From assembly GCA_965205675.1 (NCBI GenBank), contig OZ242186.1:1312001-1376000 (forward strand): a DNA stretch of 64,000 nt, written 5' to 3'. Positions 26,410 to 64,000 of the stretch are shown one piece after another (position 1 is the first letter of the stretch; each line of letters opens with the position of its first letter). The position numbers and the translations under genes are program-made. The DNA comes from Nitrosopumilus sp. Lineage in GTDB: Archaea > Thermoproteota > Nitrososphaeria > Nitrososphaerales > Nitrosopumilaceae. Under the pieces are notes generated by a model. It was not told the origin of the DNA and did no database searches. It saw only the letters and a program-made list of their open reading frames with translations.

Positions 26410-26550
26410 GAAAATCAAAATGATTTTTGAAATTATTCCCACAGAGTTGTAACGAATTATTTCCAAAAGGGAATAGCTCAACCCAACTCTCATGACGGGA
26501 ATCGTTCTACTGGAAACGTTATTTCAGAATAACAGGAGGTTGAACCATTT
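26410..26550 (+). promoter_or_regulatory. Conserved structured cassette leader, copy 1 of 16
   Basis: Hairpins GAAAATCA/TGATTTTT, ATTCCC..AGAGTTG..TTATTTCC/GGGAATA..CAACTCT..GGGAAT and CTGGAA/TTTCAG, then AGGAGG and ATG. Confidence 0.85.
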
Positions 26551-27543
26551 ATGGTCCAACAAAATATTACAAGTGCAAGTATCAAAAATGCACAAAATCA
26601 AAAACTGCTCTTGGCAAAAAACTATGTCGAACAAGAACTAGAAACCCAAGGGTATAGAGGTCGCATCAAGTATGATATGACCAACAAAGCTCTGGTCCAA
26701 TACAGGACCAAGGAGGGAACAATAGCCGTCATCAAAGAAGGCAAACTGCACATCTTTGAGATGCCAGTCAAAAAGTTCAAGGGGGCACTTCCATTGGAGA
26801 CAAATCCAGTGGATATGGATTCCATCAGGACAGAAAAGGCAACATGCTGTAAAAGATGCCATCAATGGAAAAAGACTGCAAACATAACCCGCTGTCCTTG
26901 CGGAGGATATCTGGTTCCAAGAAAGAGATTCTCAGTAGATGCTGTAGAGTCTTGGGATGAAGAGGTCCTCGAGATAGAGTTTGCCAAAAAAGACATCATC
27001 CTAGCAAAGAAGACTGATAGGGTACTATCTCACAAACCAAAGAGATCAACCCCTAAAGGAATCACCGCAAACCTATCTGGAATGTATGCAGTAGATACTC
27101 CGCTAGATACCCACAAGGAAGAGTTGTTGCTAGTTACAGACGGTGAGGATGTAAGAACCATTCGAGTCAGACCCATATCATCATGCAGTCTGATATTTGT
27201 AGCGGCGATAGATTCTGGAATATCTGATGAACAAAAATTTGAGATACTCTCAGAATGCAGAAAGGATGATTCTGAGGACAGACAGTTCCTATCTGAGACA
27301 GATAGATTTGTCAGAGAACACATCCCACAAAAGGCAAAGAACATGGTGGATTCATGGAATGAACCATCATATCCTTTCAAACTTGGCAGAAAAGGCAAGA
27401 CATCAAAGAGAGCCACAAGATCACTCAAGAGAATGGACAAGAGTCATGCCTCAGAGAAAACAAGTCTCAAAAACGGAAAAAAGCCACAGTTCTTTGCAAG
27501 CTCAGTACCAGCAGCACAGACTCTCAAGAATGAGTCAAAGTAA
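26551..27543 (+). CDS. Hypothetical Zn-ribbon protein A, copy 2
   Basis: Near-identical to the other copies; SD AGGAGG upstream. Confidence 0.75.
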   Translation: MVQQNITSASIKNAQNQKLLLAKNYVEQELETQGYRGRIKYDMTNKALVQYRTKEGTIAVIKEGKLHIFEMPVKKFKGALPLETNPVDMDSIRTEKATCCKRCHQWKKTANITRCPCGGYLVPRKRFSVDAVESWDEEVLEIEFAKKDIILAKKTDRVLSHKPKRSTPKGITANLSGMYAVDTPLDTHKEELLLVTDGEDVRTIRVRPISSCSLIFVAAIDSGISDEQKFEILSECRKDDSEDRQFLSETDRFVREHIPQKAKNMVDSWNEPSYPFKLGRKGKTSKRATRSLKRMDKSHASEKTSLKNGKKPQFFASSVPAAQTLKNESK

Positions 27544-27725
27544 ATGTCACTGCAAGAAGAGTTTGTGACAGAAAAACATCTTTAAGAAAATAAAAACCAC
27601 AGCACACCCCCAACTTTTTTTTATGTGACCTGACAATCCTCTCAAATCCAATATCATACTATGACACCTGACAGGCAGATTGGATGTGGAGATGGTACAG
27701 ATGCTTGCAGCATCATACAAAAATC

Positions 27726-28214
27726 ATGAAAGAGGAAACCACAAACAAAGTAAAAACCAGTCTAGTACGAAAACAAAACGTGATATTTGTAGCAATGGTA
27801 GCAGTTGGGTTATCCCTAACTGTCATGAGCCAGCTTACAGATTCGCGACTGCTAAGTGAAGGCATAGCCTTTATTATAGTTGGATTCGTAGGAATGTTAA
27901 TGTCTTGGACTACGATGGATGTTGGTGCCAGTATCAAAGAAGCAATACATGATGTTGGCAGAAAAAACCTAGCCGCATTGGAATCCATTGCAAAATCTCA
28001 GAAGGAGATAGCATCTTCTCAAAAAGAGATAGCATCATCTCAAAAAGAGATAGCATCATCTCAAAAAGAGATAGCATCATCTCAAAAAGAGATAGCATCA
28101 TCTCAAAAAGAGATGGACACGTCTCTCAAGGAGATAGCATCCTCTCAGAATGAGATCAAAGACATTCTAGGTACACATACTACAATTCTAAAGAACCTAG
28201 AGAAAAAAGACTGA
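27726..28214 (+). CDS. Two-TM + coiled-coil protein, family 1
   Basis: Expanded 21-bp KEIASSQ repeat. Confidence 0.75.
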   Translation: MKEETTNKVKTSLVRKQNVIFVAMVAVGLSLTVMSQLTDSRLLSEGIAFIIVGFVGMLMSWTTMDVGASIKEAIHDVGRKNLAALESIAKSQKEIASSQKEIASSQKEIASSQKEIASSQKEIASSQKEMDTSLKEIASSQNEIKDILGTHTTILKNLEKKD

Positions 28215-28319
28215 GTTTTCAAAAACCCACAATATTTTTTTGACTGAGTCATGCACTCCAAACCGACATTATTTGTAGCAATACAAATCGACTCAGCGAG
28301 TTGGTGTGAGATGTGTAAA

Positions 28320-28460
28320 GAAAATCAAAATGATTTTTGAAATTATTCCCACAGAGTTGTAACGAATTATTTCCAAAAGGGAATAGCTCAACCCAACTCT
28401 CATGACGGGAATCGTTCTACTGGAAACGTTATTTCAGAATAAAAGGAGGTTGAACCATTT
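28320..28460 (+). promoter_or_regulatory. Structured cassette leader, copy 2
   Basis: Near-identical to 26410-26550. Confidence 0.85.
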
Positions 28461-29453
28461 ATGGTCCAACAAAATATTACAAGTGCAAGTATCAAAAATG
28501 CACAAAATCAAAAACTGCTCTTGGCAAAAAACTATGTCGAACAAGAACTAGAAACCCAAGGGTACAGAGGTCGCATCAAGTATGATATGACCAACAAAGC
28601 TCTGGTCCAATACAGGACCAAGGAGGGAACAATAGCCGTCATCAAAGAAGGCAAACTGCACATCTTTGAGATGCCAGTCAAAAAGTTCAAGGGGGCACTT
28701 CCATTGGAGACAAATCCAGTGGATATGGATTCCATCAGGACAGAAAAGGCAACATGCTGTAAAAGATGCCATCAATGGAAAAAGACTGCAAACATAACCC
28801 GCTGTCCTTGCGGAGGATATCTGGTTCCAAGAAAGAGATTCTCAGTAGATGCTGTAGAGTCTTGGGATGAAGAGGTCCTCGAGATAGAGTTTGCCAAAAA
28901 AGACATCATCCTAGCAAAGAAGACTGATAGGGTACTATCTCACAAACCAAAGAGATCAACCCCTAAAGGAATCACCGCAAACCTATCTGGAATGTATGCA
29001 GTAGATACTCCGCTAGATACCCACAAGGAAGAGTTGTTGCTAGTTACAGACGGTGAGGATGTAAGAACCATTCGAGTCAGACCCATATCATCATGCAGTC
29101 TGATATTTGTAGCGGCGATAGATTCTGGAATATCTGATGAACAAAAATTTGAGATACTCTCAGAATGCAGAAAGGATGATTCTGAGGACAGACAGTTCCT
29201 ATCTGAGACAGATAGATTTGTCAGAGAACACATCCCACAAAAGGCAAAGAACATGGTGGATTCATGGAATGAACCATCATATCCTTTCAAACTTGGCAGA
29301 AAAGGCAAGACATCAAAGAGAGCCACAAGATCACTCAAGAGAATGGACAAGAGTCATGCCTCAGAGAAAACAAGTCTCAAAAACGGAAAAAAGCCACAGT
29401 TCTTTGCAAGCTCAGTACCAGCAGCACAGACTCTCAAGAATGAGTCAAAGTAA
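28461..29453 (+). CDS. Hypothetical Zn-ribbon protein A, copy 3
   Basis: Tandem copy. Confidence 0.75.
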   Translation: MVQQNITSASIKNAQNQKLLLAKNYVEQELETQGYRGRIKYDMTNKALVQYRTKEGTIAVIKEGKLHIFEMPVKKFKGALPLETNPVDMDSIRTEKATCCKRCHQWKKTANITRCPCGGYLVPRKRFSVDAVESWDEEVLEIEFAKKDIILAKKTDRVLSHKPKRSTPKGITANLSGMYAVDTPLDTHKEELLLVTDGEDVRTIRVRPISSCSLIFVAAIDSGISDEQKFEILSECRKDDSEDRQFLSETDRFVREHIPQKAKNMVDSWNEPSYPFKLGRKGKTSKRATRSLKRMDKSHASEKTSLKNGKKPQFFASSVPAAQTLKNESK

Positions 29454-29635: not shown

Positions 29636-30082
29636 ATGAAAGAGGAAACCACAAACAAAGTAAAAACCAGTCTAGTACGAAAACAAAACGTGATATTTGT
29701 AGCAATGGTAGCAGTTGGGTTATCCCTAACTGTCATGAGCCAGCTTACAGATTCGCGACTGCTAAGTGAAGGCATAGCCTTTATTATAGTTGGATTCGTA
29801 GGAATGTTAATGTCTTGGACTACGATGGATGTTGGTGCCAGTATCAAAGAAGCAATACATGATGTTGGCAGAAAAAACCTAGCCGCATTGGAATCCATTG
29901 CAAAATCTCAGAAGGAGATAGCATCTTCTCAAAAAGAGATGGGCAAATCTCTCAAAGAGATGGACACGTCTCTCAAAGAGATGGACACGTCTCTCAAGGA
30001 GATAGCATCCTCTCAGAATGAGATCAAAGACATTCTAGGTACACATACTACAATTCTAAAGAACCTAGAGAAAAAAGACTGA
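29636..30082 (+). CDS. Two-TM + coiled-coil protein, family 1
   Basis: Tandem copy with a different heptad count. Confidence 0.75.
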   Translation: MKEETTNKVKTSLVRKQNVIFVAMVAVGLSLTVMSQLTDSRLLSEGIAFIIVGFVGMLMSWTTMDVGASIKEAIHDVGRKNLAALESIAKSQKEIASSQKEMGKSLKEMDTSLKEMDTSLKEIASSQNEIKDILGTHTTILKNLEKKD

Positions 30083-30187
30083 GTTTTCAAAAACCCACAA
30101 TATTTTTTTGACTGAGTCATGCACTCCAAACCGACATTATTTGTAGCAATACAAATCGACTCAGCGAGTTGGTGTGAGATGTGTAAA

Positions 30188-30328
30188 GAAAATCAAAATG
30201 ATTTTTGAAATTATTCCCACAGAGTTGTAACGAATTATTTCCAAAAGGGAATAGCTCAACCCAACTCTCATGACGGGAATCGTTCTACTGGAAACGTTAT
30301 TTCAGAATAAAAGGAGGTTGAACCATTT
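30188..30328 (+). promoter_or_regulatory. Structured cassette leader, copy 3
   Basis: Near-identical to copy 1. Confidence 0.85.
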
Positions 30329-31321
30329 ATGGTCCAACAAAATATTACAAGTGCAAGTATCAAAAATGCACAAAATCAAAAACTGCTCTTGGCAAAAAAC
30401 TATGTCGAACAAGAACTAGAAACCCAAGGGTACAGAGGTCGCATCAAGTATGATATGACCAACAAAGCTCTGGTTCAATACAGGACCAAGGAGGGAACAA
30501 TAGCCGTCATCAAAGAAGGCAAACTGCACATCTTTGAGATGCCGGTCAAAAAGTTCAAGGGGGCACTTCCATTGGAGACAAATCCAGTGGATATGGATTC
30601 CATCAGGACAGAAAAGGCAACATGCTGTAAAAGATGCCATCAATGGAAAAAGACTGCAAACATAACCCGCTGTCCTTGCGGAGGATATCTGGTTCCAAGA
30701 AAGAGATTCTCAGTAGATGCTGTAGAGTCCTGGGATGAGGAAGTCCTCGAGATAGAGTTTGCCAAAAAAGACATCATCCTAGCAAAGAAGACTGATAGGG
30801 TACTATCTCACAAACCAAAGAGATCAACCCCTAAAGGAATCACCGCAAACCTATCTGGAATGTATGCAGTAGATACTCCGCTAGATACCCACAAGGAAGA
30901 GTTGTTGCTAGTTACAGACGGTGAGGATGTAAGAACCATTCGAGTCAGACCCATATCATCATGCAGTCTGATATTTGTAGCGGCGATAGATTCTGGAATA
31001 TCTGATGAACAAAAATTTGAGATACTCTCAGAATGCAGAAAGGATGATTCTGAGGACAGACAGTTCCTATCTGAGACAGATAGATTTGTCAGAGAACACA
31101 TCCCACAAAAGGCAAAGAACATGGTGGATTCATGGAATGAACCATCATATCCTTTCAAACTTGGCAGAAAAGGCAAGACATCAAAGAGAGCCACAAGATC
31201 ACTCAAGAGAATGGACAAGAGTCATGCCTCAGAGAAAACAAGTCTCAAAAACGGAAAAAAGCCACAGTTCTTTGCAAGCTCAGTACCAGCAGCACAGACT
31301 CTCAAGAATGAGTCAAAGTAA
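30329..31321 (+). CDS. Hypothetical Zn-ribbon protein A, copy 4
   Basis: Tandem copy. Confidence 0.75.
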   Translation: MVQQNITSASIKNAQNQKLLLAKNYVEQELETQGYRGRIKYDMTNKALVQYRTKEGTIAVIKEGKLHIFEMPVKKFKGALPLETNPVDMDSIRTEKATCCKRCHQWKKTANITRCPCGGYLVPRKRFSVDAVESWDEEVLEIEFAKKDIILAKKTDRVLSHKPKRSTPKGITANLSGMYAVDTPLDTHKEELLLVTDGEDVRTIRVRPISSCSLIFVAAIDSGISDEQKFEILSECRKDDSEDRQFLSETDRFVREHIPQKAKNMVDSWNEPSYPFKLGRKGKTSKRATRSLKRMDKSHASEKTSLKNGKKPQFFASSVPAAQTLKNESK

Positions 31322-31503: not shown

Positions 31504-31992
31504 ATGAACAAAAAAACAACAAACAAAGTAAGAACCAGTCTAGTACGAAAACAAAACGTGATATTTGTAGCAATGGTAGCAGTTGGGTTATCCCTAACTG
31601 TCATGAGCCAGCTTACAGATTCGCGACTGCTAAGTGAAGGCATAGCCTTTATTATAGTTGGATTCGTAGGAATGTTAATGTCTTGGACTACGATGGATGT
31701 TGGTGCCAGTATCAAAGAAGCAATACATGATGTTGGCAGAAAAAACCTAGCCGCATTGGAATCCATTGCAAAATCTCAGAAGGAGATAGCATCATCTCAA
31801 AAAGAGATAGCATCATCTCAAAAAGAGATAGCATCATCTCAAAAAGAGATAGCATCATCTCAAAAAGAGATGGACACGTCTCTCAAGGAGATAGCATCCT
31901 CTCAGAATGAGATCAAAGACATTCTAGGTACACATACTACAATTCTAGAAAAGCATACTACAATTCTAAAGAACCTAGAGAAAAAAGACTGA
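31504..31992 (+). CDS. Two-TM + coiled-coil protein, family 1
   Basis: KEIASSQ and HTTILEK heptad expansions. Confidence 0.75.
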   Translation: MNKKTTNKVRTSLVRKQNVIFVAMVAVGLSLTVMSQLTDSRLLSEGIAFIIVGFVGMLMSWTTMDVGASIKEAIHDVGRKNLAALESIAKSQKEIASSQKEIASSQKEIASSQKEIASSQKEMDTSLKEIASSQNEIKDILGTHTTILEKHTTILKNLEKKD

Positions 31993-32097
31993 GTTTTCAA
32001 AAACCCACAATATTTTTTTGACTGAGTCATGCACTCCAAACCGACATTATTTGTAGCAATACAAATCGACTCAGCGAGTTGGTGTGAGATGTGTAAA

Positions 32098-32238
32098 GAA
32101 AATCAAAATGATTTTTGAAATTATTCCCACAGAGTTGTAACGAATTATTTCCAAAAGGGAATAGCTCAACCCAACTCTCATGACGGGAATCGTTCTACTG
32201 GAAACGTTATTTCAGAATAAAAGGAGGTTGAACCATTT
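32098..32238 (+). promoter_or_regulatory. Structured cassette leader, copy 4
   Basis: Near-identical to copy 1. Confidence 0.85.
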
Positions 32239-33231
32239 ATGGTCCAACAAAATATTACAAGTGCAAGTATCAAAAATGCACAAAATCAAAAACTGCTCTT
32301 GGCAAAAAACTATGTCGAACAAGAACTAGAAACCCAAGGGTACAGAGGTCGCATCAAGTATGATATGACCAACAAAGCTCTGGTTCAATACAGGACCAAG
32401 GAGGGAACAATAGCCGTCATCAAAGAAGGCAAACTGCACATCTTTGAGATGCCGGTCAAAAAGTTCAAGGGGGCACTTCCATTGGAGACAAATCCAGTGG
32501 ATATGGATTCCATCAGGACAGAAAAGGCAACATGCTGTAAAAGATGCCATCAATGGAAAAAGACTGCAAACATAACCCGCTGTCCTTGCGGAGGATATCT
32601 GGTTCCAAGAAAGAGATTCTCAGTAGATGCTGTAGAGTCCTGGGATGAGGAAGTCCTCGAGATAGAGTTTGCCAAAAAAGACATCATCCTAGCAAAGAAG
32701 ACTGATAGGGTACTAGCTCACAAACCAAAGAGATCAACCCCTAAAGGAATCACCGCAAACCTATCTGGAATGTATGCAGTAGATACTCCGCTAGATACCC
32801 ACAAGGAAGAGTTGTTGCTAGTTACAGACGGTGAGGATGTAAGAACCATTCGAGTCAGACCCATATCATCATGCAGTCTGATATTTGTAGCGGCGATAGA
32901 TTCTGGAATATCTGATGAACAAAAATTTGAGATACTCTCAGAATGCAGAAAGGATGATTCTGAGGACAGACAGTTCCTATCTGAGACAGATAGATTTGTC
33001 AGAGAACACATCCCACAAAAGGCAAAGAACATGGTGGATTCATGGAATGAACCATCATATCCTTTCAAACTTGGCAGAAAAGGCAAGACATCAAAGAGAG
33101 CCACAAGATCACTCAAGAGAATGGACAAGAGTCATGCCTCAGAGAAAACAAGTCTCAAAAACGGAAAAAAGCCACAGTTCTTTGCAAGCTCAGTACCAGC
33201 AGCACAGACTCTCAAGAATGAGTCAAAGTAA
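32239..33231 (+). CDS. Hypothetical Zn-ribbon protein A, copy 5
   Basis: Tandem copy heading the full-length cassette. Confidence 0.75.
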   Translation: MVQQNITSASIKNAQNQKLLLAKNYVEQELETQGYRGRIKYDMTNKALVQYRTKEGTIAVIKEGKLHIFEMPVKKFKGALPLETNPVDMDSIRTEKATCCKRCHQWKKTANITRCPCGGYLVPRKRFSVDAVESWDEEVLEIEFAKKDIILAKKTDRVLAHKPKRSTPKGITANLSGMYAVDTPLDTHKEELLLVTDGEDVRTIRVRPISSCSLIFVAAIDSGISDEQKFEILSECRKDDSEDRQFLSETDRFVREHIPQKAKNMVDSWNEPSYPFKLGRKGKTSKRATRSLKRMDKSHASEKTSLKNGKKPQFFASSVPAAQTLKNESK

Positions 33232-33659: not shown

Positions 33660-34106
33660 ATGACTGGAGAGGATATTTACAACAACTGCCAAACCATCCT
33701 ACGACACACAGATGATGGAGACGCTCTGTTTGCAAGTGACTTGAAGCTGGTGCAAAATGCAGCCAATGGTCTTTTGTCTTCAGAAGGCAAAGTCGCCTTG
33801 CGTCGACTCAGATGCCAGTGTGAGACAGGCAAATATCTAGAAGGACCACCTGTTTGTGGAGTGGAGAATCTAACCCGAGGCAGAGGTGAGGATCGCAGAG
33901 TATTCTGGAAAGGAATCGTGGTGGAACACTATGATCATGATTTCTGGTGCTACGAAGGGTGGCAAGAAGAAATGATCAAAGATGCACAACAGCTTGGAAG
34001 AGTATGCCAATACCTAGAAGAGCACGGCATTACGGTGAGTTTTGAGAACTATCTCAAATACACCAAAAATGTTTGCAACGGAGACAAAGAAAATGGGAGT
34101 GTTTGA
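33660..34106 (+). CDS. Hypothetical protein
   Basis: 148-aa ORF, TAATG-coupled to a short upstream ORF. Confidence 0.65.
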   Translation: MTGEDIYNNCQTILRHTDDGDALFASDLKLVQNAANGLLSSEGKVALRRLRCQCETGKYLEGPPVCGVENLTRGRGEDRRVFWKGIVVEHYDHDFWCYEGWQEEMIKDAQQLGRVCQYLEEHGITVSFENYLKYTKNVCNGDKENGSV

Positions 34107-34482
34107 TACGGTCATAGCAACCGTGACATGTCCCCATTGCAACGAATCATATCTTCATGAGGACATACAGACAAAATCATTTGTACGTGGACTCTATGAG
34201 ATATACGAAAATGACGACACCCGATATCTGAAAGGAAATCCAATGCTTCCCGGCAGACCAAACGCATTTGCGGGAATCAAAAACATGGATTTTCCATGTT
34301 ACACGCACTGTTACATATGTGATTCTGAGCTTTACATTATCTGTAAAATAAGGAAATACATCCTAACTAAAGCACAGGTCACAAGAATAGATAGGAGAAC
34401 CGTCGGCATGAAGAATCCATACGTTCTAGATCTTAGTGCCAAATCAAAGTCTGCCGCAGAAATGGGGTTTTTAAGAAAATAA
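34093..34482 (+). CDS. Zn-finger hypothetical protein
   Basis: MGVFDTV...CPHC...IQTKSF...CYIC. Confidence 0.65.
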   Translation: MGVFDTVIATVTCPHCNESYLHEDIQTKSFVRGLYEIYENDDTRYLKGNPMLPGRPNAFAGIKNMDFPCYTHCYICDSELYIICKIRKYILTKAQVTRIDRRTVGMKNPYVLDLSAKSKSAAEMGFLRK

Positions 34483-34743
34483 AAACCACAGCACACCCCC
34501 AACTTTTTTTTATGTGACCTGACAATCCTCTCAAATCCAATATCATACTATGACACCTGACAGGCAGATTGGATGTGGAGATGGTACAGATGCTTGCAGC
34601 ATCATATGGTTCTAGAGAACCTAGAGAAAAAATACAGAGTTTTCAAAAACCCACAATATTTTTTTGACTGAGCCATGCACTCCAAACCGACATTATTTGT
34701 AGCAATACAAATCGACTCAGCGAGTTGGTGTGAGATGTGTAAA

Positions 34744-34884
34744 GAAAATCCATATGGGTTTTTCAAAGTTATTCCTACAGAGGTATTATAGACTATTCTC
34801 AAAGGAGAATAATCCGAGGTATCTCTCATGCCAGGAATCGTCCTACTGGTGACGTTACAGCCAGAATAAAAGGAGTTGACGCCA
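34744..34884 (+). promoter_or_regulatory. Structured cassette leader, copy 5 (variant)
   Basis: Covariant stems ATTCCT/AGGAAT, AGAGGTAT/GTATCTCT and TATTCTC/GAGAATA. Confidence 0.85.
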
Positions 34885-35238
34885 ATGGCACAACCATACA
34901 GTGCAAGTGAAAGCACACAAAACAATTCACAAAATCCCGTCCTAGATGGCGATAAAGTCAGTATCTGCGTGAGTGGCAACCAGGTGCAAATACAAAGACC
35001 TGATTTTGTAACTGACAAGCCAATACAGGATATCAGCGAGAAGAGAGAAATTCTTGCAAAGGACTTGCTTGAAGAATGGGAGGCAGTATCTGTACAAAAG
35101 CAGGGAATCCTGTTTGCAGTATCTGTAGGAGATAGCAGATACCTAGTCAGAGGACATGACAGGGTACCGGCAAACGCCGTAGTGGTAAGAACCCAATCAA
35201 ACCAGCTCATGGGTATTGGGGCAGTAGTAGGAGGTTAA
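34885..35238 (+). CDS. Hypothetical protein with shared leader peptide
   Basis: Starts MAQPYSASESTQNNSQNP; duplicated at 37267. Confidence 0.6.
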   Translation: MAQPYSASESTQNNSQNPVLDGDKVSICVSGNQVQIQRPDFVTDKPIQDISEKREILAKDLLEEWEAVSVQKQGILFAVSVGDSRYLVRGHDRVPANAVVVRTQSNQLMGIGAVVGG

Positions 35239-35486
35239 TGTTGTTTTTCAAAAACAACCCCTCTCTTTTCCACCATATCTGCAAATTCCCACAAATCAAT
35301 TCCAAAAAACGAGAATAAAACATGACAAAAATCTACAAGCCCACAATAATATCTGAAGATCCCCTTGACTTGGAGCAATCCCAAGACGGACCCAAACAGA
35401 AAACGTGTGAGCATGCAAAAGAAATGAGACCCAGCCATAGTCGAGGTTTGGATTCATTCTGACATGATAACGAGGGAATCAACAAG

Positions 35487-35753
35487 ATGACAGCAGAAGA
35501 GGCAGCAACGCAACGATTCCAAGACGATCCATGCCTTTTTGACCTTGCAGTTGACTCAGTGCGAACCAAAAAAGCAATGAAACGATTCAGAAACGATCCA
35601 TACTTTGAGGTTATGGTACAATCAATTGCAAAAAAGGCAGCAAAATATGCATACGCTAGAATCAAGCTAGATGAAACACTGGGTACAGGCAACGAAATAG
35701 ATGATATCATAAGAGAAAAAGTATTTCAAACAATCAAGAGGTTTGATGTATAG
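35487..35753 (+). CDS. Hypothetical protein
   Basis: 88-aa ORF coupled to the next gene. Confidence 0.55.
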   Translation: MTAEEAATQRFQDDPCLFDLAVDSVRTKKAMKRFRNDPYFEVMVQSIAKKAAKYAYARIKLDETLGTGNEIDDIIREKVFQTIKRFDV

Positions 35754-36424
35754 TGGCAAAACGATTTCTCAAAAGAGCATTTGGGGCAGTAGCAATCACA
35801 GTACTGATAGTAATTACAGCATCTCTTACATACCAGTATGTAGTCCCGATGATTCTATCAGATGAGGCATCAAGTGCGGTCTCAGATGGAATAGGTGCCG
35901 GAGAAGAAATGCTGTATGCAGCACAGGACAAAGTTGCAGACATATTCATCACAGAAGAGGAGCCGGTTTCAGAAGACCCCCAGATTGATGAGACAGATGG
36001 CTTGATACAAAACGACATGTACGATGAAATGCCCGAATCCCAAGAGGAGGTAATACCATACAAGACTGCATCGGGAGGCAAAGTCACCAGAATAGTAGAC
36101 GGTGATACGCTAGACATTGACGGAATCCGAATCAGACTTGCATTGGTAAACACCCCCGAGTCCGGAGAGGCAGGATACAAAGAGGCTACGGCATTTACTG
36201 CCAAGCACTGTCCTGTAGGTTCTACTGCAATGTATGATGTGGATAACGGTCAGAAAGGAGGATCATATGGCAGAGTAATCGGCAAGGTATGGTGCTTTGG
36301 CTATCCCGTACAGACACCTGAGACGTCCCTTAACGCGATGCTCATTGATGCAGGACATGCCAGAGTATTAGAAAGATTCTGCGGCGTCAGCCAGTTCAAA
36401 GATGATCATTGGACAGGCTGCTGA
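35753..36424 (+). CDS. Membrane-anchored thermonuclease (SNase-like)
   Basis: VTRIVDGDTL, IRLALVNTPE, YGRVIG, LNAMLIDAGHA; N-terminal TM. Confidence 0.88.
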   Translation: MAKRFLKRAFGAVAITVLIVITASLTYQYVVPMILSDEASSAVSDGIGAGEEMLYAAQDKVADIFITEEEPVSEDPQIDETDGLIQNDMYDEMPESQEEVIPYKTASGGKVTRIVDGDTLDIDGIRIRLALVNTPESGEAGYKEATAFTAKHCPVGSTAMYDVDNGQKGGSYGRVIGKVWCFGYPVQTPETSLNAMLIDAGHARVLERFCGVSQFKDDHWTGC

Positions 36425-36553
36425 GACCTTACAAACCCCAACTTTTTTTTATGTGACCTGACAATCCTCTCAAACCCAATATCATACTATGACACCTGAC
36501 AGGCAGATTGGATGTGGAGATGGTACAGATGCTTGCAGCATCATACAAAAATC

Positions 36554-37021
36554 ATGAAAGAGGAAACCACAAACAAAGTAAGAACCAGTCTAGTACGAAA
36601 ACAAAACGTGATATTTGTAGCAATGGTAGCAGTTGGGTTATCCCTAACTGTCATGAGCCAGCTTACAGATTCGCGACTGCTAAGTGAAGGCATAGCCTTT
36701 ATTATAGTTGGATTCGTAGGAATGTTAATGTCTTGGACTACGATGGATGTTGGTGCCAGTATCAAAGAAGCAATACATGATGTTGGCAGACAAAACCTAG
36801 CCGCATTGGAATCCATTGCATCTTCTCAAAAAGAGATGGGCAAATCTCTCAAAGAGATGGACACGTCTCTCAAAGAGATGGACACGTCTCTCAAAGAGAT
36901 AGCATCCTCTCAGAAGGAGATAGCATCCTCTCAGAAGGAGATCAAAGACATTCTAGGTACACATACTACGATTCTAGAAAAGCATACTACAATTCTAGAG
37001 AACCTAGAGAAAAAAGACTGA
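36554..37021 (+). CDS. Two-TM + coiled-coil protein, family 1
   Basis: Dispersed copy. Confidence 0.75.
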   Translation: MKEETTNKVRTSLVRKQNVIFVAMVAVGLSLTVMSQLTDSRLLSEGIAFIIVGFVGMLMSWTTMDVGASIKEAIHDVGRQNLAALESIASSQKEMGKSLKEMDTSLKEMDTSLKEIASSQKEIASSQKEIKDILGTHTTILEKHTTILENLEKKD

Positions 37022-37126
37022 GTTTTCAAAAACCCACAATATTTTTTTGACTGAGTCATGCACTCCAAACCAACATTATTTGTAGCAATACAAATCGACT
37101 CAGCGAGTTGGTGTGAGATGTGTAAA

Positions 37127-37266
37127 GAAAATCCATATGGGTTTTTCAAAGTTATTCCTACAGAGGTATTATAGACTATTCTCAAAGGAGAATAATCCGA
37201 GGTATCTCTCATGCCAGGAATCGTCCTACTGGAAACGTTATTTCAGAATAAAAGGAGTTGACGCCA
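37127..37266 (+). promoter_or_regulatory. Structured cassette leader, copy 6
   Basis: Like copy 5 but carries the CTGGAA/TTTCAG version of the last hairpin. Confidence 0.85.
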
Positions 37267-37620
37267 ATGGCACAACCATACAGTGCAAGTGAAAGCACAC
37301 AAAACAATTCACAAAATCCCGTCCTAGATGGCGATAAAGTCAGTATCTGCGTGAGTGGCAACCAGGTGCAAATACAAAGACCTGATTTTGTAACTGACAA
37401 GCCAATACATGATATCAGCGAGAAGAGAGAAATTCTTGCAAAGGACTTGCTTGAAGAATGGGAGGCAGTATCTGTACAAAAGCAGGGAATCCTGTTTGCA
37501 GTATCTGTAGGAGATAGCAGATACCTAGTCAGAGGACATGACAGGGTACCGGCAAACGCCGTAGTGGTAAGAACCCAATCAAACCAGCTCATGGGTATTG
37601 GGGCAGTAGTAGGAGGTTAA
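37267..37620 (+). CDS. Hypothetical protein with shared leader peptide
   Basis: Duplicate of 34885-35238. Confidence 0.6.
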   Translation: MAQPYSASESTQNNSQNPVLDGDKVSICVSGNQVQIQRPDFVTDKPIHDISEKREILAKDLLEEWEAVSVQKQGILFAVSVGDSRYLVRGHDRVPANAVVVRTQSNQLMGIGAVVGG

Positions 37621-37703
37621 TGTTGTTTTTCAAAAACAACCCCTCTCTTTTCCACCATATCTGCAAATTCCCACAAATCAATTCCAAAAAACGAGAATAA
37701 AAC

Positions 37704-47122: not shown

Positions 47123-47125
47123 GAA

Positions 47126-52743: not shown

Positions 52744-52880
52744 TGCTCACAAAAATCTTGGAATTGCACAAGACAACATACGTGGCAGAAAGCACAAAAG
52801 AGCACTCAAAAAGGTTAGACAGGAATTAAACCGCATTCTTGATTCCTAATCTTTTTTTATGATGGAAAAATAGAATAGAC

Positions 52881-53120: not shown

Positions 53121-53425
53121 TTTGGGATTTATCACGCCGACCAAGATTCATCAAACAATTCAAGGGTCTTGATCCACAACTAAAACAAAGAATCCTCAAA
53201 TCATTATCAGAACTTTCCATATCTGATAATCCTGCAGATCAAGGAGAATACAAAATAGGCATGAAAGTATTTGCATACAATGTTGGGAAATATAGAATAA
53301 TCTATACTATTGATTATTTTAACAGTAAGATTATTTTGCATAGAGTATGTGACCACAAATCAGTCTATGGCAAAGACTGGAGAAACCAAAACAAATTTTT
53401 TGAACAAAACATCCAAGACTCATAG
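53117..53425 (+). CDS. RelE/ParE-family toxin 3 (C-terminally extended)
   Basis: KYRIIYTI..HRVCDHKSVYGKD, then TGG at 53378-53380 where paralogues have TAG. Confidence 0.8.
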   Translation: MIWDLSRRPRFIKQFKGLDPQLKQRILKSLSELSISDNPADQGEYKIGMKVFAYNVGKYRIIYTIDYFNSKIILHRVCDHKSVYGKDWRNQNKFFEQNIQDS

Positions 53426-53471
53426 CATTTCTAAGATAATTATCTTTAGAATCCAATGAGTTTTTGGTACA

Positions 53472-53611
53472 GAAAATCAAAGACAGATTTTCAAAATTAT
53501 TCCTACAGAGTTGTGTAGAATTATTCTCATAGAGTGTGATTCAAAGTAACTCTCATGACAGGAATCGTACTGCTGGAGACGTTACTGCCAGAATAAAAGG
53601 AGGAACCAATT
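53472..53611 (+). promoter_or_regulatory. Structured cassette leader, copy 13 (variant)
   Basis: ATTCCT/AGGAAT and AGAGTTG/TAACTCT stems. Confidence 0.82.
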
Positions 53612-53824
53612 ATGGTCCGACAAAACAGTGCAAGTGAAAGCACACAAAACAATTCACAAAATCCCGCCCTTAATACAAATGGTCTCACCCATCACGTGGA
53701 ATGGACTGAGGAGCAGCAAGAAACCCTGCGGTTTCTGCTCGAAGAGCAGGTAGCAAATGAGGAATATTATTCCTCATTGGATGAACCGCACGGAGTCTCG
53801 TGCAACTGTACAGAGTGCAACTAA
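53612..53824 (+). CDS. Small acidic protein with leader peptide and CNCTECN end
   Basis: Paralogue of 43797 and 59617. Confidence 0.65.
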   Translation: MVRQNSASESTQNNSQNPALNTNGLTHHVEWTEEQQETLRFLLEEQVANEEYYSSLDEPHGVSCNCTECN

Positions 53825-54054
53825 TGTCATCCATAGCAGTTCTAACTCTGGACAGCGAGGATATCAGAGAGCATCTTAACTGCGATGAGAAAAGAGTGCA
53901 CCAGATAATGGGAATGGCAGTAAGAGGCGAGTTCACAGATGCAATCATGGATTCGTTTTGGGATACCATTGATGCATTTGATGGCATTCTCAAAACAGAG
54001 GACAGAACAACCCTGCAAGTCTATGAGCAGTTGGGCAAAAAACTGGAGGAATAG
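53824..54054 (+). CDS. Small hypothetical protein
   Basis: Paralogue at 60667. Confidence 0.65.
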   Translation: MSSIAVLTLDSEDIREHLNCDEKRVHQIMGMAVRGEFTDAIMDSFWDTIDAFDGILKTEDRTTLQVYEQLGKKLEE

Positions 54055-54059: not shown

Positions 54060-54593
54060 ATGTCTGATAGAATCCCGGACTGGGAAGACATGCCAGACGG
54101 CGTATCTCTTGTGACACTGTCATGGGAGGACGTGTACGTCAAGGCTCGCAAGGAACTGTTGAGAAATCCGACAAGAGAGGAGACATTGAAGATCTTCGAT
54201 GACATTGCACATCCTATGAGCAATGCAGTACAAGACGACATGCCTGCACATCTTGATGCCCTGATTGAGGAGATGGTCAAAGAATGTCTCAAATCAAAAC
54301 CATACAGTATAGATTCCATGAGTCCAGAAGAACTCGTATCCAGAAAATACTGCCATACATGCCAGGACATACAGGAGACATACTGGGAACTTGGAGTGTG
54401 TGAGAAGAATCCCGAAGGACTCTGCATACCAAAAGACCACGGAAACGACAAAGACGGCATCATAGAGTGCAGTGATGAATGGTGTAACCCGACACAGCAA
54501 ACTGTAGAGACGCAGATCACAAAAGAGTTCGTCCAGAGTCACAACGTGGATGAAAGATGTGCACAGTGTCACCGCATGCTGGAGTCTCAGTAA
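54060..54593 (+). CDS. Cys-rich acidic hypothetical protein
   Basis: Paralogue of the N-terminal half of 60903. Confidence 0.7.
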   Translation: MSDRIPDWEDMPDGVSLVTLSWEDVYVKARKELLRNPTREETLKIFDDIAHPMSNAVQDDMPAHLDALIEEMVKECLKSKPYSIDSMSPEELVSRKYCHTCQDIQETYWELGVCEKNPEGLCIPKDHGNDKDGIIECSDEWCNPTQQTVETQITKEFVQSHNVDERCAQCHRMLESQ

Positions 54594-54594
54594 T

Positions 54595-55401
54595 ATGAAA
54601 AACTCTGAGAAAGCAACAGTTCTGCTAAAAGAGATTGCAGAAGTCTTTTCCAAAAAAGAGTTTGCCTCAAACTGTGCAAAGGTGTTTATCAACGCCAAAG
54701 AAAACGACATACCGTCATCCTCATGGTCAATGGGAAACCAATTACTGATGCTGTTTTCTGGAACAGATGATGCAAGAGGGTACAGGCAATGGGGGCAGGT
54801 AAAGCGCCACGTCAAAAAGGGCTCAAAGGCAATCTACATACTGGTCCCAATGGTAAAGAAGATCAAAGACAAGAAGACAGACGAGGAGAGGACAGTAACT
54901 ATCGGATTCCGGGGAGTGCCTGTATTTAGATACGAGGACACTGAAGGAGAGGCTCTAAAGGCATACACTCCAAGGACTCTGCCTCCGCTATTTGGGCTTG
55001 CAGAAAAAAATGGAATCGACGTGAGATGGACAAACACAAAACAGGGAGAGTACGGCTCAATGAATCATACTGACAAATCCATGACTCTGAGTACTGAGGC
55101 ACCTGACACGTTTTTGCACGAACTGATGCACTGGTATGACGGCAAAAACGTCAAGATGGTAAACGGACAAGACCCTGAACAGGAGACTGTCGCACAGCTT
55201 GGAGCATGTGTGCTTGCAAAACTGTACGGGTATGACTCTGAGAGCTACACCTGGAACTATATCGCATCATACGCCAAGGCAGAGTCTCCGCAAGACGTCG
55301 GGCAGATGTGCTTTAAGGTACTCAGCAGAGTGCAAAAGGCAATCACTGCAATACTTGATGATGCAGAGTCTTTGCCAGCCCTAAAGGTGCCATCAAAATG
55401 A
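54595..55401 (+). CDS. ardC: ArdC-like antirestriction protein (ssDNA-binding N-domain plus zincin-like domain)
   Basis: WSMGNQLL...GYRQW..VKRHVKKGSKAIYILVP...VPVF, FLHELMHW, ETVAQLGA, NYIASY. Confidence 0.8.
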   Translation: MKNSEKATVLLKEIAEVFSKKEFASNCAKVFINAKENDIPSSSWSMGNQLLMLFSGTDDARGYRQWGQVKRHVKKGSKAIYILVPMVKKIKDKKTDEERTVTIGFRGVPVFRYEDTEGEALKAYTPRTLPPLFGLAEKNGIDVRWTNTKQGEYGSMNHTDKSMTLSTEAPDTFLHELMHWYDGKNVKMVNGQDPEQETVAQLGACVLAKLYGYDSESYTWNYIASYAKAESPQDVGQMCFKVLSRVQKAITAILDDAESLPALKVPSK

Positions 55402-57032: not shown

Positions 57033-57123
57033 AGAAACCAAAACAAATTTTTTGAACAAAACATCCAAGACTCATAGCATTTCTAAGATAATTATCTTTA
57101 GAATCCAATGAGTTTTTGGTACA

Positions 57124-57263
57124 GAAAATCAAAGACAGATTTTCAAAATTATTCCTACAGAGTTGTGTAGAATTATTCTCATAGAGTATGATTCAAAGTA
57201 GCTCTCATGACGGGAATCGTCCTGCTGGTGACGTTACTGCCAGAATAAAAGGAGGAACCAATT
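57124..57263 (+). promoter_or_regulatory. Structured cassette leader, copy 14
   Basis: Variant like copy 13. Confidence 0.82.
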
Positions 57264-57539
57264 ATGGTCCGACAAAACAGTGCAAGTGAAAGCACACAAA
57301 ACAAATCACAGCAAAACAACGATGCAGTAAAAGTCGACATAGAAAATTCAAACGACAGTTCTATGGCAAACAGCAAAAAAGGCATCAAGTTACTAAGAGC
57401 TGAAATACAGGCACACTTTTGCCAAATCCAAGAATACCTGGATGAAAACGATGCAGATCATACCAGGTACGCATTCCATGAAGCAGACACTGCAGCCCAC
57501 AAAATAAGGGATTTGTGTGATATGGAGGCCGGACAATAA
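57264..57539 (+). CDS. Hypothetical protein with leader peptide
   Basis: MVRQNSASESTQ start. Confidence 0.6.
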   Translation: MVRQNSASESTQNKSQQNNDAVKVDIENSNDSSMANSKKGIKLLRAEIQAHFCQIQEYLDENDADHTRYAFHEADTAAHKIRDLCDMEAGQ

Positions 57540-58391: not shown

Positions 58392-58868
58392 ATGTTTGGC
58401 AAAGGTACGGATGTACAAAAAACCAACATCAGTGATCAGGTAAAGGACAATCGATGGCTGTTTGTCATTGTATCTCTTGGCATCGGTCTGTTGATAACAG
58501 GAGTGGTTTTGTGGAACGAGACACTTGTCGCCATAGGAGCTGCCTTTATTATTGCCGGCGGTGTAGGGATATACATGATGCTTGCAACAAGACAGGTGGC
58601 AAAACAACTACACCTGCGATTCAACGAGCAAAATGACATCTTAGAGAGGCTAGATGAAAGCTCCGGCAAGCAGACAGACATCCTCAAAGACATGGATAAA
58701 TCTCTAAATGAGATAGCATCATCTCAGAAAGACATAGCATCATCTCAGAAAGACATAGCATCATCTCAGAAACAAAACCATTCAGAGATGATAGACGTTC
58801 TAAAAAGAATAGAGACAGGTTTCTCAAATCTCGGAGAAGGTCTCAAGAAAATCGAAGACAAGCTGTAA
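58392..58868 (+). CDS. Two-TM + coiled-coil protein, family 2
   Basis: KDIASSQ repeats. Confidence 0.75.
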   Translation: MFGKGTDVQKTNISDQVKDNRWLFVIVSLGIGLLITGVVLWNETLVAIGAAFIIAGGVGIYMMLATRQVAKQLHLRFNEQNDILERLDESSGKQTDILKDMDKSLNEIASSQKDIASSQKDIASSQKQNHSEMIDVLKRIETGFSNLGEGLKKIEDKL

Positions 58869-59371: not shown

Positions 59372-59476
59372 GTTTTCAAAAACCCACAATATTTTTTTGA
59401 CTGAGTCATGCACTCCAAACCAACATTATTTGTAGCAATACAAATCGACTCAGCGAGTTGGTGTGAGATGTGTAAA

Positions 59477-59616
59477 GAAGATCCATACGGATTTTCCAAA
59501 GTTGTTCCTACAGAGTTATTTTCAGAATCATCTCAAAAGAGAATGATTCGGGTATCTCTCATGACAGGAATCGTCCTGCTGGAAACGTTATTTCAGAATA
59601 TAGGAGGAAAAGTCAA
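59477..59616 (+). promoter_or_regulatory. Structured cassette leader, copy 15
   Basis: GTTCCT/AGGAAT and GAATCATCTC/GAGAATGATTC stems. Confidence 0.82.
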
Positions 59617-59826
59617 ATGGCTTTACCAAACAATACAAGTACAAGTATAACAAATGTACAAAATCCCGCCTTTTATGGAAAAGGCATTACACCATCCATG
59701 GAATGGACACAAGAACAACAAGAAATCTTGCAAGATCAACTTGAAGAACAGGTTGCAAATGAGGAATACTATGGTACCCTAGATGAACCACATGGATGGA
59801 CATGTAATTGTCTGGAGTGCAACTAA
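59617..59826 (+). CDS. Small acidic protein with CNCLECN end
   Basis: Diverged paralogue of 43797 and 53612. Confidence 0.65.
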   Translation: MALPNNTSTSITNVQNPAFYGKGITPSMEWTQEQQEILQDQLEEQVANEEYYGTLDEPHGWTCNCLECN

Positions 59827-62525: not shown

Positions 62526-62900
62526 ATGTCAACGGCAACTGTACAGGGAAAGAGCACCTTTGCGTTTGATAGAACCATAAGAAATGCAAGGCAGCGTCTG
62601 AAGAAGACTGAGAATTACTCCCAGATACCGCACCTTCCTGCAACATACCCTCAACGGCAAAACAGCCTGAACGGAGTGGATGTTACAGTAAGGGCCAAGA
62701 TACTCAAGTGCCATCTTGAGGACACATACCCGCAAAACATCTTTTCTGTAGCAATAACTCGCAGAAAGGAGTACTGTACCATAACAGTGTGTCATGACTT
62801 TGCAAGATCAGAGACGATTGCAGGGATTGCAGCACTCTATGAGAATGATTCCACAAGAATCGTCCTTGATACGTTTGCATCTAATAGCTGTGAGCAATGA
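62526..62900 (+). CDS. Hypothetical protein, LPD29-like
   Basis: Paralogue of 55599. Confidence 0.55.
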   Translation: MSTATVQGKSTFAFDRTIRNARQRLKKTENYSQIPHLPATYPQRQNSLNGVDVTVRAKILKCHLEDTYPQNIFSVAITRRKEYCTITVCHDFARSETIAGIAALYENDSTRIVLDTFASNSCEQ

Positions 62901-63115
62901 CACAGTTCACAGAGAAAAAGGCCCGTAACCTGATAGATACCCAATCCGTCATGCATGTTGGCAATGACACATATCAGGTGAGATCATCGACTCCTGGAAA
63001 ATCATACATCATAGAATCTGAAATATGCGAATGTGCAGGATTCAGGTTTCGGGGGGAATGCTCACATGTGCAAGCTGTAAAGATGTTACAATACAAGGTA
63101 CAACCCAAACAATGA
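62897..63115 (+). CDS. SWIM zinc-finger protein
   Basis: CEC..F.FRGECSHV. Confidence 0.8.
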   Translation: MTQFTEKKARNLIDTQSVMHVGNDTYQVRSSTPGKSYIIESEICECAGFRFRGECSHVQAVKMLQYKVQPKQ

Positions 63116-63336
63116 CAAACCCTAAAAATGTAAAAGAACCATCATACAGTATGATAAAAATGACGGAGATGAATGTGTTTCTGATTGCAGTGAATATTGG
63201 AGGGTTTGTCTGCATCATAACAGCAGAAATCTTTGATGTTCGAATAGTAGGATGGCTCGGAGTTGGACTGGCTGCCGCAAGTATAATGCAGCTTGTGACA
63301 AATAACACTGGAGGCTCAGAAGAGCATGTTTGGTAA
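63112..63336 (+). CDS. Small two-TM protein
   Basis: Paralogue of 56205. Confidence 0.6.
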   Translation: MTNPKNVKEPSYSMIKMTEMNVFLIAVNIGGFVCIITAEIFDVRIVGWLGVGLAAASIMQLVTNNTGGSEEHVW

Positions 63337-63781
63337 AGGTACGGATGTACAAAAAACCAACATCAGTGATCAGGTAAAGGACAATCGATGGCTGTTTGTC
63401 ATTGTATCTCTTGGCATCGGTCTGTTGATAACAGGAGTGGTTTTGTGGAACGAGACACTTGTCGCCATAGGAGCTGCCTTTATTATTGCCGGCGGTGTAG
63501 GGATATACATGATGCTTGCAACAAGACAGGTGGCAAAACAACTACACCTGCGATTCAACGAGCAAAATGAGATTCTTGATACGCAGACTGGAATTCTCAA
63601 AGACATAGCATCGTCTCAGAAGGAGATGGGCAAGTCTCTCAAGGAGATAACATCATCTCAGAAAGAGATAGCATCATCTCAGAAACAAAACCATTCAGAG
63701 ATGATAGACGTTCTAAAAAGAATAGAGACAGGTTTCTCAAATCTCGGAGAAGGTCTCAAGAAAATAGAGAACAAGCTGTAA
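63326..63781 (+). CDS. Two-TM + coiled-coil protein, family 2
   Basis: 5' part near-identical to 58392, 3' end near-identical to 45029. Confidence 0.75.
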   Translation: MFGKGTDVQKTNISDQVKDNRWLFVIVSLGIGLLITGVVLWNETLVAIGAAFIIAGGVGIYMMLATRQVAKQLHLRFNEQNEILDTQTGILKDIASSQKEMGKSLKEITSSQKEIASSQKQNHSEMIDVLKRIETGFSNLGEGLKKIENKL

Positions 63782-63876
63782 AGTACAGTTTGATTTGAGA
63801 GTACGACACCTCAAAACCCATTTTAGTTTTAGCGCAAGCTAGGACCTGATTTATCAGATGGGTGCGAGGTGTCATG

Positions 63877-64000
63877 GAAGATCCACATGGATTTTTCAAA
63901 ATTATTCCCACAGAGTTGTAACGAATTATTTCCAAAAGGGAATAACTCAGCCCAAGATCTCATGACGGGAATCGTCCTGCTGGTGACGTTACTGCCAGAA
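63877..64000 (+). promoter_or_regulatory. Structured cassette leader, copy 16 (cut by window end)
   Basis: Conserved element. Confidence 0.82.

Follow-up and report, generated by a model that had tools for sequence, protein, structure and literature searches.

A covarying repeat upstream of cargo operons in a Nitrosopumilus conjugative element is a candidate structured mRNA leader

The described systems that come closest to the repeat reported here are the Frpo/ssi repeats of bacterial plasmids, the leader-peptide coupling of plasmid rep genes and synthetic bicistronic designs. The original Frpo work is reportedly that of Masai and Arai (1997). In the plasmids R1 (tap-repA, with CopA) and ColIb-P9 (repY-repZ, with Inc RNA and a pseudoknot) the leader open reading frame (ORF) has roughly 24–30 codons, and bicistronic designs were engineered for context-independent translation. 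To our knowledge, archaea have very few known cis-regulatory RNA structures, and their conjugative elements none. The repeat described here, which bears on how the cargo genes of such elements are expressed and controlled, lies in a stretch of 64 000 nucleotides of Nitrosopumilus sp. (contig OZ242186.1; G000:C1:1312001–1376000 of a closed 2.01-Mb genome), called the window below. We read it, with a probability of about 0.6, as a ∼330-nt structured 5′ mRNA leader on the cargo operons of an integrated conjugative element, which sets or regulates their translation. Its anatomy, its covariation, the strand that folds and its setting in a conjugative element are observed directly.

Like the Frpo/ssi repeats of F and ColIb-P9, as the cited part of PMC11541004 presents them, we have structured repeats of 150–330 nt upstream of genes, in one orientation and with anti-restriction-type cargo. 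Unlike in those repeats, the fold here is on the coding strand and includes a Shine–Dalgarno (SD) sequence, the AUG and the first codons, and the host is an archaeon. Putative thaumarchaeal conjugative elements are described, in the part of PMC6563490 used here, as carrying VirB4/VirD4 and TFIIB homologues and no known relaxases, and as possibly moving double-stranded DNA, which is a further difference from the bacterial plasmids. Like plasmid rep leaders, our repeat is structured, contains a leader ORF that has an SD of its own and whose stop codon abuts or overlaps the main start, and has a candidate loop–linker pseudoknot; it differs in that many unrelated cargo genes are served instead of one rep gene, the leader ORF is often fused to them and the host is archaeal. 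The bicistronic designs, an engineering analogy, also have a standard leader and a short first ORF with a second SD, with TAATG coupling any downstream gene, but the leader here is natural, has a much larger structured 5′ part and often has its first ORF fused to the cargo.

BLAST with the copy near 37127 finds 19 copies in the host genome (16 in the window, two just past it and one distant copy on the minus strand), and a motif scan of the genome arrives at the same 19 places, each followed by AGGAG...ATG; a repeat search (family D13) gives 15 copies in register, spaced 1360–3652 nt. All 16 copies that an earlier note on this DNA had placed in the window are recovered by BLAST, the motif scan and a covariance model (R1), and its remark on how complete copies end is borne out at all 19 places: AGGAG(G) closes every complete copy, with the ATG 5–14 nt later. 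Eighteen copies stand head to tail on the plus strand over ∼42 kb, 1.36–4.4 kb apart, in a stretch with a strong excess of A over T. A copy stands ahead of each operon in the 45-kb gene array, whose units contain one to six genes and have T-runs at their ends. Units 1–4 are near-identical tandem copies, with spacings of 1910, 1868 and 1910 nt. The core of the element is ∼140 bases long and the element with its flanks ∼330; the ∼140-nt element of the earlier note is therefore right as to the core and falls short as to the full extent, which is about twice as long and takes in an upstream module, a hairpin around the AUG and a leader ORF.

The copies in the window, with bounds and bit scores from the R1 search, are all on the plus strand. 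Copy 1 (P1–P5, SD and ATG, also read in the sequence) spans 26404–26553 (161 bits), ahead of a gene for 330 amino acids (aa) at 26551–27543. The others are copy 2 at 28314–28463 (163.3 bits), copy 3 at 30182–30331 (163.3 bits), copy 4 at 32092–32241 (163.3 bits), copy 5 at 34738–34887 (163.4 bits), copy 6 at 37121–37269 (160 bits), copy 7, whose P1 is the most divergent in the host genome, at 40041–40184 (126.1 bits), copy 8 at 43650–43799 (164.8 bits), copy 9 at 45541–45691 (171.5 bits), copy 10 at 47484–47631 (158 bits), copy 11 at 48845–48994 (152.6 bits), copy 12 at 51387–51536 (169.5 bits), copy 13 at 53466–53614 (152.8 bits), copy 14 at 57118–57266 (155.6 bits), copy 15 at 59471–59619 (133.8 bits) and copy 16 at 63871–64000 (136 bits). 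The 3′ end of copy 16 is cut by the end of the window; the whole copy is found in the genome at L001:71–221.

RNAalifold on the 19 host-genome copies predicts three hairpins, P1, the long P2-P3-P4 and P5, with six of 29 pairs changed on both sides, and six copies folded singly have z-scores of −2.5 to −3.6. Because copies within one genome are close kin, R1 was built to search for relatives. The host genus, which has at least 150 species, was sampled with 150 other genomes; eight of these carry the element, in 14, 10, 6, 3, 2, 1, 1 and 1 copies. The set used for covariation comprises 70 R1 matches that reduce to 56 distinct copies from nine genomes (the host and these eight) and nine marine metagenome contigs. 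On the 56 distinct copies, P1–P5 have standard pairs in 95.6% of 1776 cells, and both partners vary in 24 of 32 pairs (234 cells); not one of five measures is reached by any of 500 shuffled controls. When the 3′ partners are slid by 1–3 columns, pairing is 35–56% and both-sided changes are seen in just 8–14 pairs.

This alignment was fitted to the covariance model, so two model-independent checks were made. From a structure-blind MAFFT alignment of 54 distinct complete copies, RNAalifold recovers P1, P2 and P5, and both partners vary in 11 of its 18 pairs. Between the two strands of P2, the P3/P4 segment forms a single hairpin without branches in 46 of 47 distinct sequences (median 17 bp; z<−2 in 44). 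With identical copies collapsed, covariation is thus strong on distinct copies, and all five stems named in the earlier note (P1, P2, P3, P4 and P5) are real and covary; its view that selection acts on a single-stranded fold agrees with the 56-copy alignment, with the MAFFT alignment (P1, P2 and P5) and with the alignment-free folds (P3/P4). Judged by these alignments, the helices are kept by compensatory changes beyond what relatedness explains, which is the mark of a conserved structured RNA, and the z-scores of single copies together with recurrence in other genomes with compensatory changes put the array repeat far beyond chance. A reading without function, in which the copies are alike because units were recently duplicated together with their intergenic DNA, would suit those copies in the host genome that are identical or nearly so; it is scarcely credible, since the covariation refutes it: divergent copies in eight other genomes and nine metagenome contigs keep the helices while loop and helix sequences differ.

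Two unpaired stretches are invariant, namely GGAAUCGU after P2 and the P5 loop ACGUUA. The CGU after P2 and the ACG of the P5 loop are pairable in all 168 cells; the only variants are a CGC–GCG combination in one lineage and a single wobble. Hammerhead-like cores and a K-turn in the internal loop between P2 and P3 were sought by eye only and dropped, the loop not being conserved across genomes.

Which strand folds can be read from the wobble pairs. Among the consensus pairs there are 122 G-U and 25 A-C (1608 cells), A-C being what a wobble on the opposite strand would look like, and in the well-anchored helices P1, P2 and P5 the counts are 59 and 6. Because G-U far outnumbers A-C, it is by this measure the coding strand that folds, as had been suggested earlier from the wobble pairs. 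This bears first on a Frpo-type single-strand promoter, in which a hairpin on the transferred template strand would mimic a duplex promoter and allow early expression after transfer. Such a promoter would suit structured repeats that lie upstream of genes in one orientation, near conjugation genes and an ArdC-like gene, a layout that matches the bacterial anti-defence islands (as shown in the cited part of PMC11541004). It would, however, need the fold on the copied strand, and the wobbles fit the coding strand (122 vs 25, and 59 vs 6 in P1, P2 and P5); the structure also extends through the SD, the AUG and the first codons, i.e. the transcribed part, and the archaeal host uses TBP/TFB promoters, to which −35/−10 logic does not apply. 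The hairpin on the template strand that defines Frpo/ssi is therefore not what we find here, and we give this explanation almost no weight. Frpo had been brought up as an analogy only, and as an analogy it stands; the strand test goes against identity.

A fold on the coding strand is equally what a single-stranded DNA signal on the plus strand would need, e.g. a priming site, or a recognition site for DNA processing, along the transferred or displaced coding strand. A one-strand fold, 18 copies in one orientation and the conjugative element are in keeping with this, as is the minimum free energy (MFE), which under DNA parameters is lower for the plus strand in 34 of 50 copies and for the minus strand in 15 (p=0.0006); the Frpo/ssi repeats of bacterial leading regions are a precedent (PMC11541004, in the part cited). 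We nevertheless consider such a signal very unlikely: a priming site does not need fixed spacing to an SD, an AUG and a leader ORF, G-T pairs, frequent here (122 of 1608 cells), are weak in DNA whereas RNA tolerates them well, thaumarchaeal conjugative elements without recognisable relaxases may transfer double-stranded DNA (again according to part of PMC6563490), and neither a relaxase nor an oriT is seen among the window proteins scanned. The coding-strand fold, the structure running through the SD, the AUG and the first codons, the many G-U pairs and the coupled leader ORF together point to RNA, which is very probably the molecule that folds.

Upstream of the core, a run of at least five T is found within 140 nt in 50 of 60 distinct copies, which makes the units look separately transcribed. 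Between this run and P1 lies a second conserved part, module A, whose canonical form (GACTGAG, CCAAACC-nnn, a hairpin of variable sequence, CCGACUCAGCGG and then nnn-GGUGUGAGAUG) is present in 43 of the 60 copies. For example, at 28240–28313 (plus strand, approximate bounds) GACTGAG, CCAAACC-nnn, the variable hairpin, CGACTCAGCG and nnn-GGTGTGAGATG follow one another, with a T-run just ahead. In 26 distinct copies (MAFFT) the outer stem CCAAACCnnn/nnnGGUGUG has 91.0% of its cells paired, with six of 12 pairs changed on both sides, and slid controls are 23–52% paired. The hairpin inside it forms in 20 of 20 distinct segments, with z<−2 in 19; its stems contain 11 G-U pairs, vs three when the other strand is folded. 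Copies without canonical module A have other sequences in the same stem-around-hairpin layout (judged by eye only). Module A is also seen before most leaders and in loci L048–L065, with the 3′ elements CCGACTCAGCGG and nnn-GGTGTGAGATG. In L065:2948–3070 (a metagenome contig) there is a local tandem expansion in which the 3′ arm of the module A hairpin is repeated, and in L050:12190–12312 (genome G172) 11–12-nt GGTAGAGAAGAT-like repeats stand just ahead of P1. A candidate promoter AAAATTATT between P1 and P2 was rejected, as P1 and P2 covary and this stretch must then lie in the folded strand.

The T-runs also bear on the possibility that the fold is a separate non-coding RNA or a self-cleaving ribozyme upstream of each operon, e.g. 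one that processes a long transcript. A large multi-helical domain with invariant unpaired GGAAUCGU and ACGUUA and a possible pseudoknot is the kind of architecture seen in ribozymes and riboswitch aptamers. Still, Rfam, ribozymes included, gives no match to it even at E≤5, its spacing to the SD and AUG is constant, and T-runs ahead of the units argue against one long precursor; we think a separate RNA unlikely, and turn back to the structured mRNA leader.

The 3′ part of the element is concerned with translation. AGGAG or GGAGG is present in 57 of 60 distinct copies and ATG likewise in 57 of 60. The first four codons encode MVQQ in 33 of the 60 and MVRQ in eight; MAQx is also seen. The spacer after the SD pairs with codons 2–4 (GUUGAACC with GGUCCAAC, or AAAGUC with GGCUUU) and places the AUG in the loop, and this pairing would explain why unrelated proteins start with MVQQ, MVRQ or MAQx. 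The shared part extends over the first 20–30 codons (MVQQ..TS.SI.NVQ..). Within it a second hairpin is tentatively recognised at codons ∼7–16, with the arms GUGCA/UGCAC, GUACA/UGUAC or GUGAA/UUCAC, where the paired changes alter amino acids on both arms.

What follows these codons differs among the copies. In 14 of 58 distinct downstream sequences the first ORF is short (7–31 aa), and in eight of the 14 the next ORF starts −5 to +3 nt from its stop, seven times at TAATG or TAAATG; in four of those eight, GAGGTTG or GAGGAAA lies 8–9 nt upstream of the next start and reads as a second SD inside the leader ORF. We thus find the three features of coupling through a leader ORF, i.e. a short ORF, its own SD, and a stop at or overlapping the next start. 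For example, a leader ORF of 28 aa (MAQPYDTGTSIKNVQQQ...) at 40182–40268 (plus strand) overlaps the start of an 881-aa ORF at 40261–42906. Short leader ORFs of 19–31 aa that end in TAATG or TAAATG, with a second SD ahead, are also seen in L067, L053:8511, L052:2379, L049:5515, L049:1280 and L058. In the remaining copies the leader codons continue in frame as part of the cargo ORF, often reaching a Met that resembles the cargo's own start (..SMGWSSEQ.., ..NMEWTEEQ..). An example of such in-frame fusion (MVQQNITSASIKNAQN) is at 26551–26600 (plus strand; from the sequence and the R2 alignment), with the hairpin GUGCA/UGCAC. As these copies read, the conserved unit is a structured 5′ part, a first SD (SD1), the AUG hairpin and the leader ORF, followed by either fusion or coupling; what is conserved is, on this reading, an expression device and not a part of the cargo proteins.

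The SD of the leader stands out from its surroundings. The 3′ end of the host 16S rRNA carries CCUCC; among 1305 crudely called ORF starts outside the element, GGAGG occurs within 20 nt upstream of 18 (1.4%) and AGGAG of 26. Upstream of host genes, again by crude calls, a weak T- then A-rich (TATA-like) signal is seen at −29 to −24 relative to the ATG, a sign that many host mRNAs may be leaderless. By these counts the leader supplies an SD that host genes mostly lack, and it would be a natural way to give many unrelated genes one standard translation start, in an organism that rarely uses SD sequences.

Two forms of control were looked for. One, rejected as a conserved feature, is a switch in which the SD is sequestered, either by a TCCT in the linker or by the 5′ strand of P2 as anti-SD. 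The linker is not conserved and the predicted partners of the SD are diffuse (linker 0.16, downstream 0.18, other 0.13, P2 5′ strand 0.007). The TCCT, which the earlier note had proposed to pair with the SD, does not hold up: outside the host genome CGTACT, CGTTCT or CGTACC is found, and pairing of the SD with the linker averages only that 0.16. The other is a trans-encoded antisense RNA of the R1 or ColIb-P9 type, which was not found: 12- to 15-mers of the core outside the leaders are at chance level and similar in both orientations (54 antisense, 36 sense). On the minus strand, the complement of the AUG hairpin with CTCCTTTTAT is flagged as terminator-like at 43788–43803, 45680–45695, 48983–48998, 51525–51540 and 53603–53618; it could be a stop for antisense transcription or a by-product of the AUG hairpin. 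A general scan with bacterial-type promoter and terminator models, for the sigma-70 consensus over 34001–54000, tells little in an archaeal host; it gives 17 terminator-like sites vs 15.0 expected.

The array could also be read as a set of recombination sites or scaffolds, in which units are exchanged at the repeats by a site-specific recombinase or by homologous recombination and the fold is secondary. The near-identical tandem units 1–4 are consistent with this, and so are the mosaic combinations of two P5 variants with several P1 and P3/P4 variants; moreover, contigs of public DNA runs break at leaders, and two further samples show the same leader linked to other cargo. We judge this quite unlikely as the main role, because homologous recombination does not need compensatory changes in five helices, the element lies 5′ of genes with an SD and an AUG and has several hairpins, unlike attC, and a tyrosine recombinase is not beside the array: the nearest of seven PF00589 matches in the genome (G000 1249268–1249612) begins 62.7 kb ahead of the window and ∼89 kb away from leader copy 1. 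The leaders themselves do recombine, to judge from the mosaic helix variants and the contig joints, but the compensatory changes are not explained thereby.

A comparison with integrons leads to the same place. As with attC sites, variable gene units are separated by repeats that have kept their fold, on one strand, better than their sequence. Unlike attC, which is a single imperfect hairpin at the 3′ end of a promoterless cassette, we find five helices and an upstream module, with invariant loops, 5′ of genes and followed by an SD and ATG, and the units hold one to six genes and end in T-runs. With no integrase found beside the array, an integron was rejected, and of the earlier term ‘gene cassette’ array the repeat-punctuated units stand, while ‘cassette’ is an overstatement, neither a recombinase nor a cassette-type site having been found there.

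For the structured mRNA leader we propose the following course of events. Each unit would be transcribed on its own, from a start just after the T-run that closes the previous unit, and the RNA would fold into the module A stem and hairpin, P1, the long hairpin P2-P3-P4 and P5, whose ACGUUA loop may pair with the CGU after P2 as a pseudoknot of 3 bp. The strong SD would be presented by an A-rich linker, with the AUG in the loop of its small hairpin; ribosomes would load at SD1 and translate the leader ORF (MVQQ...), opening the local hairpins. The cargo would then be reached either by in-frame fusion, or by termination and re-initiation at TAATG behind the internal SD, and unrelated cargo genes would in this way share one common translation start. 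The invariant GGAAUCGU/ACGUUA core would be the likely docking site for one trans-acting factor, a protein or a ligand, that could switch all units together. A tentative and rather doubtful extension is that the leaders form an element-wide RNA regulon or ‘expression adaptor’, which gives SD-led translation to any new cargo and through which one signal, a protein or a small molecule, switches all 19 operons via the invariant loops. If true, the adaptor could act straight after transfer and would do in archaea, at the level of RNA, what the Frpo-driven early programme does for bacterial plasmids; the leader thus bears on whether archaeal conjugative elements run an early-expression or anti-defence programme as bacterial plasmids do.

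Several points weigh against the structured mRNA leader and keep its probability near the value given above. Within module A there is a BRE/TATA-like (B recognition element and TATA box) sequence, CCAAACCC-ATTTTAT; if this is the promoter, the stem and hairpin upstream could not be in the RNA, and at the level of sequence a promoter role and an RNA role of module A would look the same. Under RNA parameters the MFE favours the plus strand weakly (31 of 50 copies, 19 for the minus strand; p=0.075). The AUG hairpin is 87.5% paired (R2 alignment) but mostly invariant, with few both-sided changes, and for the hairpin in the leader ORF pairing reaches only 68% of cells (model alignment). The CGU:ACG pseudoknot may form and is a candidate only, with one covarying lineage and one wobble in its favour. 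The predicted accessibility of the SD is unremarkable (mean unpaired probability 0.52 vs 0.45 for all positions), and no consistent anti-SD partner was found in the pairing predictions, so no switch mechanism is evident; nor was a trans-acting factor identified. Since the copies of one genome are kin to one another, the cell counts exceed the number of independent events. Finally, the RNA nature of the fold, the transcription start, coupling in vivo and regulation are steps that we infer from the sequence.

The element has a narrow distribution. Beyond the eight genomes of the genus, it is found in none of 24 genomes from 19 other families of the order and in none of 150 genomes of a family-wide draw, 141 of them from 26 other genera (under stricter filters). 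An exact 24-nt pattern has no match in viral contigs and matches 14 loci in metagenomes, nine of which hold 13 covariance-model matches. At gathering scores no Rfam 15 family matches anywhere in the window, and at E≤5 the stretch 34000–64000 has three weak matches to unrelated families, none on a leader copy; the earlier impression that this is not a described family therefore stands. The repeat resembles the riboswitches and cis-regulatory leaders of Rfam 15 in that several covarying helices and invariant unpaired nucleotides make up a domain immediately 5′ of an SD. It differs from them in matching no family and in standing before unrelated genes of a mobile element, as many as 19 times in a genome, and not before the genes of one pathway. 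We found no description of the element in the literature, the supplementary annotation of thaumarchaeal elements lying outside the scope of that search. As a structured, leader-ORF-coupled mRNA leader, which is its best reading, it is unusual in its size, in its 19 copies per genome before unrelated cargo and in its home in an archaeal conjugative element; it is a large candidate RNA with strong covariation and a clear anatomy (helices, invariant loops, SD and coupled leader ORF).

The host is identified by its small-subunit ribosomal RNA, which scores 1467 bits with the archaeal model and 1097 bits with the bacterial one, and by amoA, which was found in the genome while mcrA was not found; these mark it as an ammonia-oxidising archaeon. 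The conjugative setting is seen in the left part of the window. A gene at 7597–9438 (plus strand) encodes a VirB4/HerA-like ATPase (Pfam TraG P-loop, 3.9e-15; DUF87), followed at 9439–11991 (plus strand) by a candidate VirD4/TraG-like coupling protein with weak Pfam matches (TraG-D_C, 5.4e-05; T4SS-DNA_transf, 4e-04) and at 12799–13305 (plus strand) by a TBP paralogue encoded by the element (Pfam TBP, 4e-12). The guess of an archaeal mobile element made in the earlier note was right, as the archaeal 16S, amoA and the VirB4/VirD4-like genes indicate. Neither a relaxase nor an oriT was recognised among the window proteins scanned. The left part of the element also has a fused restriction-modification gene (methylase and BsuBI/PstI-type endonuclease) at 4271–6739 and an insertion sequence integrase-core (rve) gene at 20367–20960, and an actin/ParM-like gene lies at 23062–23916. 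Three palindrome-containing repeats (GTATCGCGTAATTACGCGATATCAAAA-like) at 23950–24210 adjoin the ParM-like gene and are possibly a partition site.

A similar setting is found in three other genomes (G172, G169 and G007), where leader copies lie 7–60 kb downstream of a VirB4 homologue on the same strand; the closest homologues of the TBP paralogue, in G172 (299471–299959, 56% identity) and G169 (2160456–2160920, 32% identity), are located between VirB4 and the leader array. No VirB4 homologue was found near the leaders of G036, G151, G153, G154 and G015. In G172 there are two arrays (C1 247–273 kb and 436–446 kb, L048–L050) with near-identical leaders and cargo, and only one of these arrays has a VirB4 homologue nearby; this points to either a recent duplication or a second element that is reduced.

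Most cargo proteins have no Pfam, PHROG or NCBIfam match, and the small CNCxECN proteins, the family found most often behind the leader, have chance-level matches only. Among the exceptions are a candidate ArdC-like anti-restriction protein at 54550–55401 (plus strand; Pfam ArdcN, 1.5e-04, just under the cut-off; PHROG anti-restriction protein, 1.8e-10), a staphylococcal-nuclease-like protein at 35753–36424 and the 881-aa protein mentioned above, which has an HSP90/GHKL-like N-terminus. Many units are closed by a gene for a membrane and coiled-coil protein in which tandem 21-nt repeats encode heptads (KEIASSQ-like); these repeats are located at 26118–26262, 27965–28172, 29875–30040, 31743–31929, 36793–36958 and 58670–58793, and their number differs between paralogues. 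The array opens with a fifth copy of the 330-aa gene (24705 onward), which has no leader; upstream of it is only a fragment like the 3′ part of module A (TCGACTCAGCGAGTAGGTATGAGG), at 24395–24425.

Contigs of four public DNA runs were compared with the stretch 36500–47500, and in two of them (X4 and X5) loose ends join a leader to other cargo. In runs X1 and X3, leader and unit-end segments exceed unique cargo in summed word depth by factors of tens to hundreds (e.g. 3292 vs 19 in X1), though such depth is not a copy number; the leader family is probably much larger in those samples than in the host genome.

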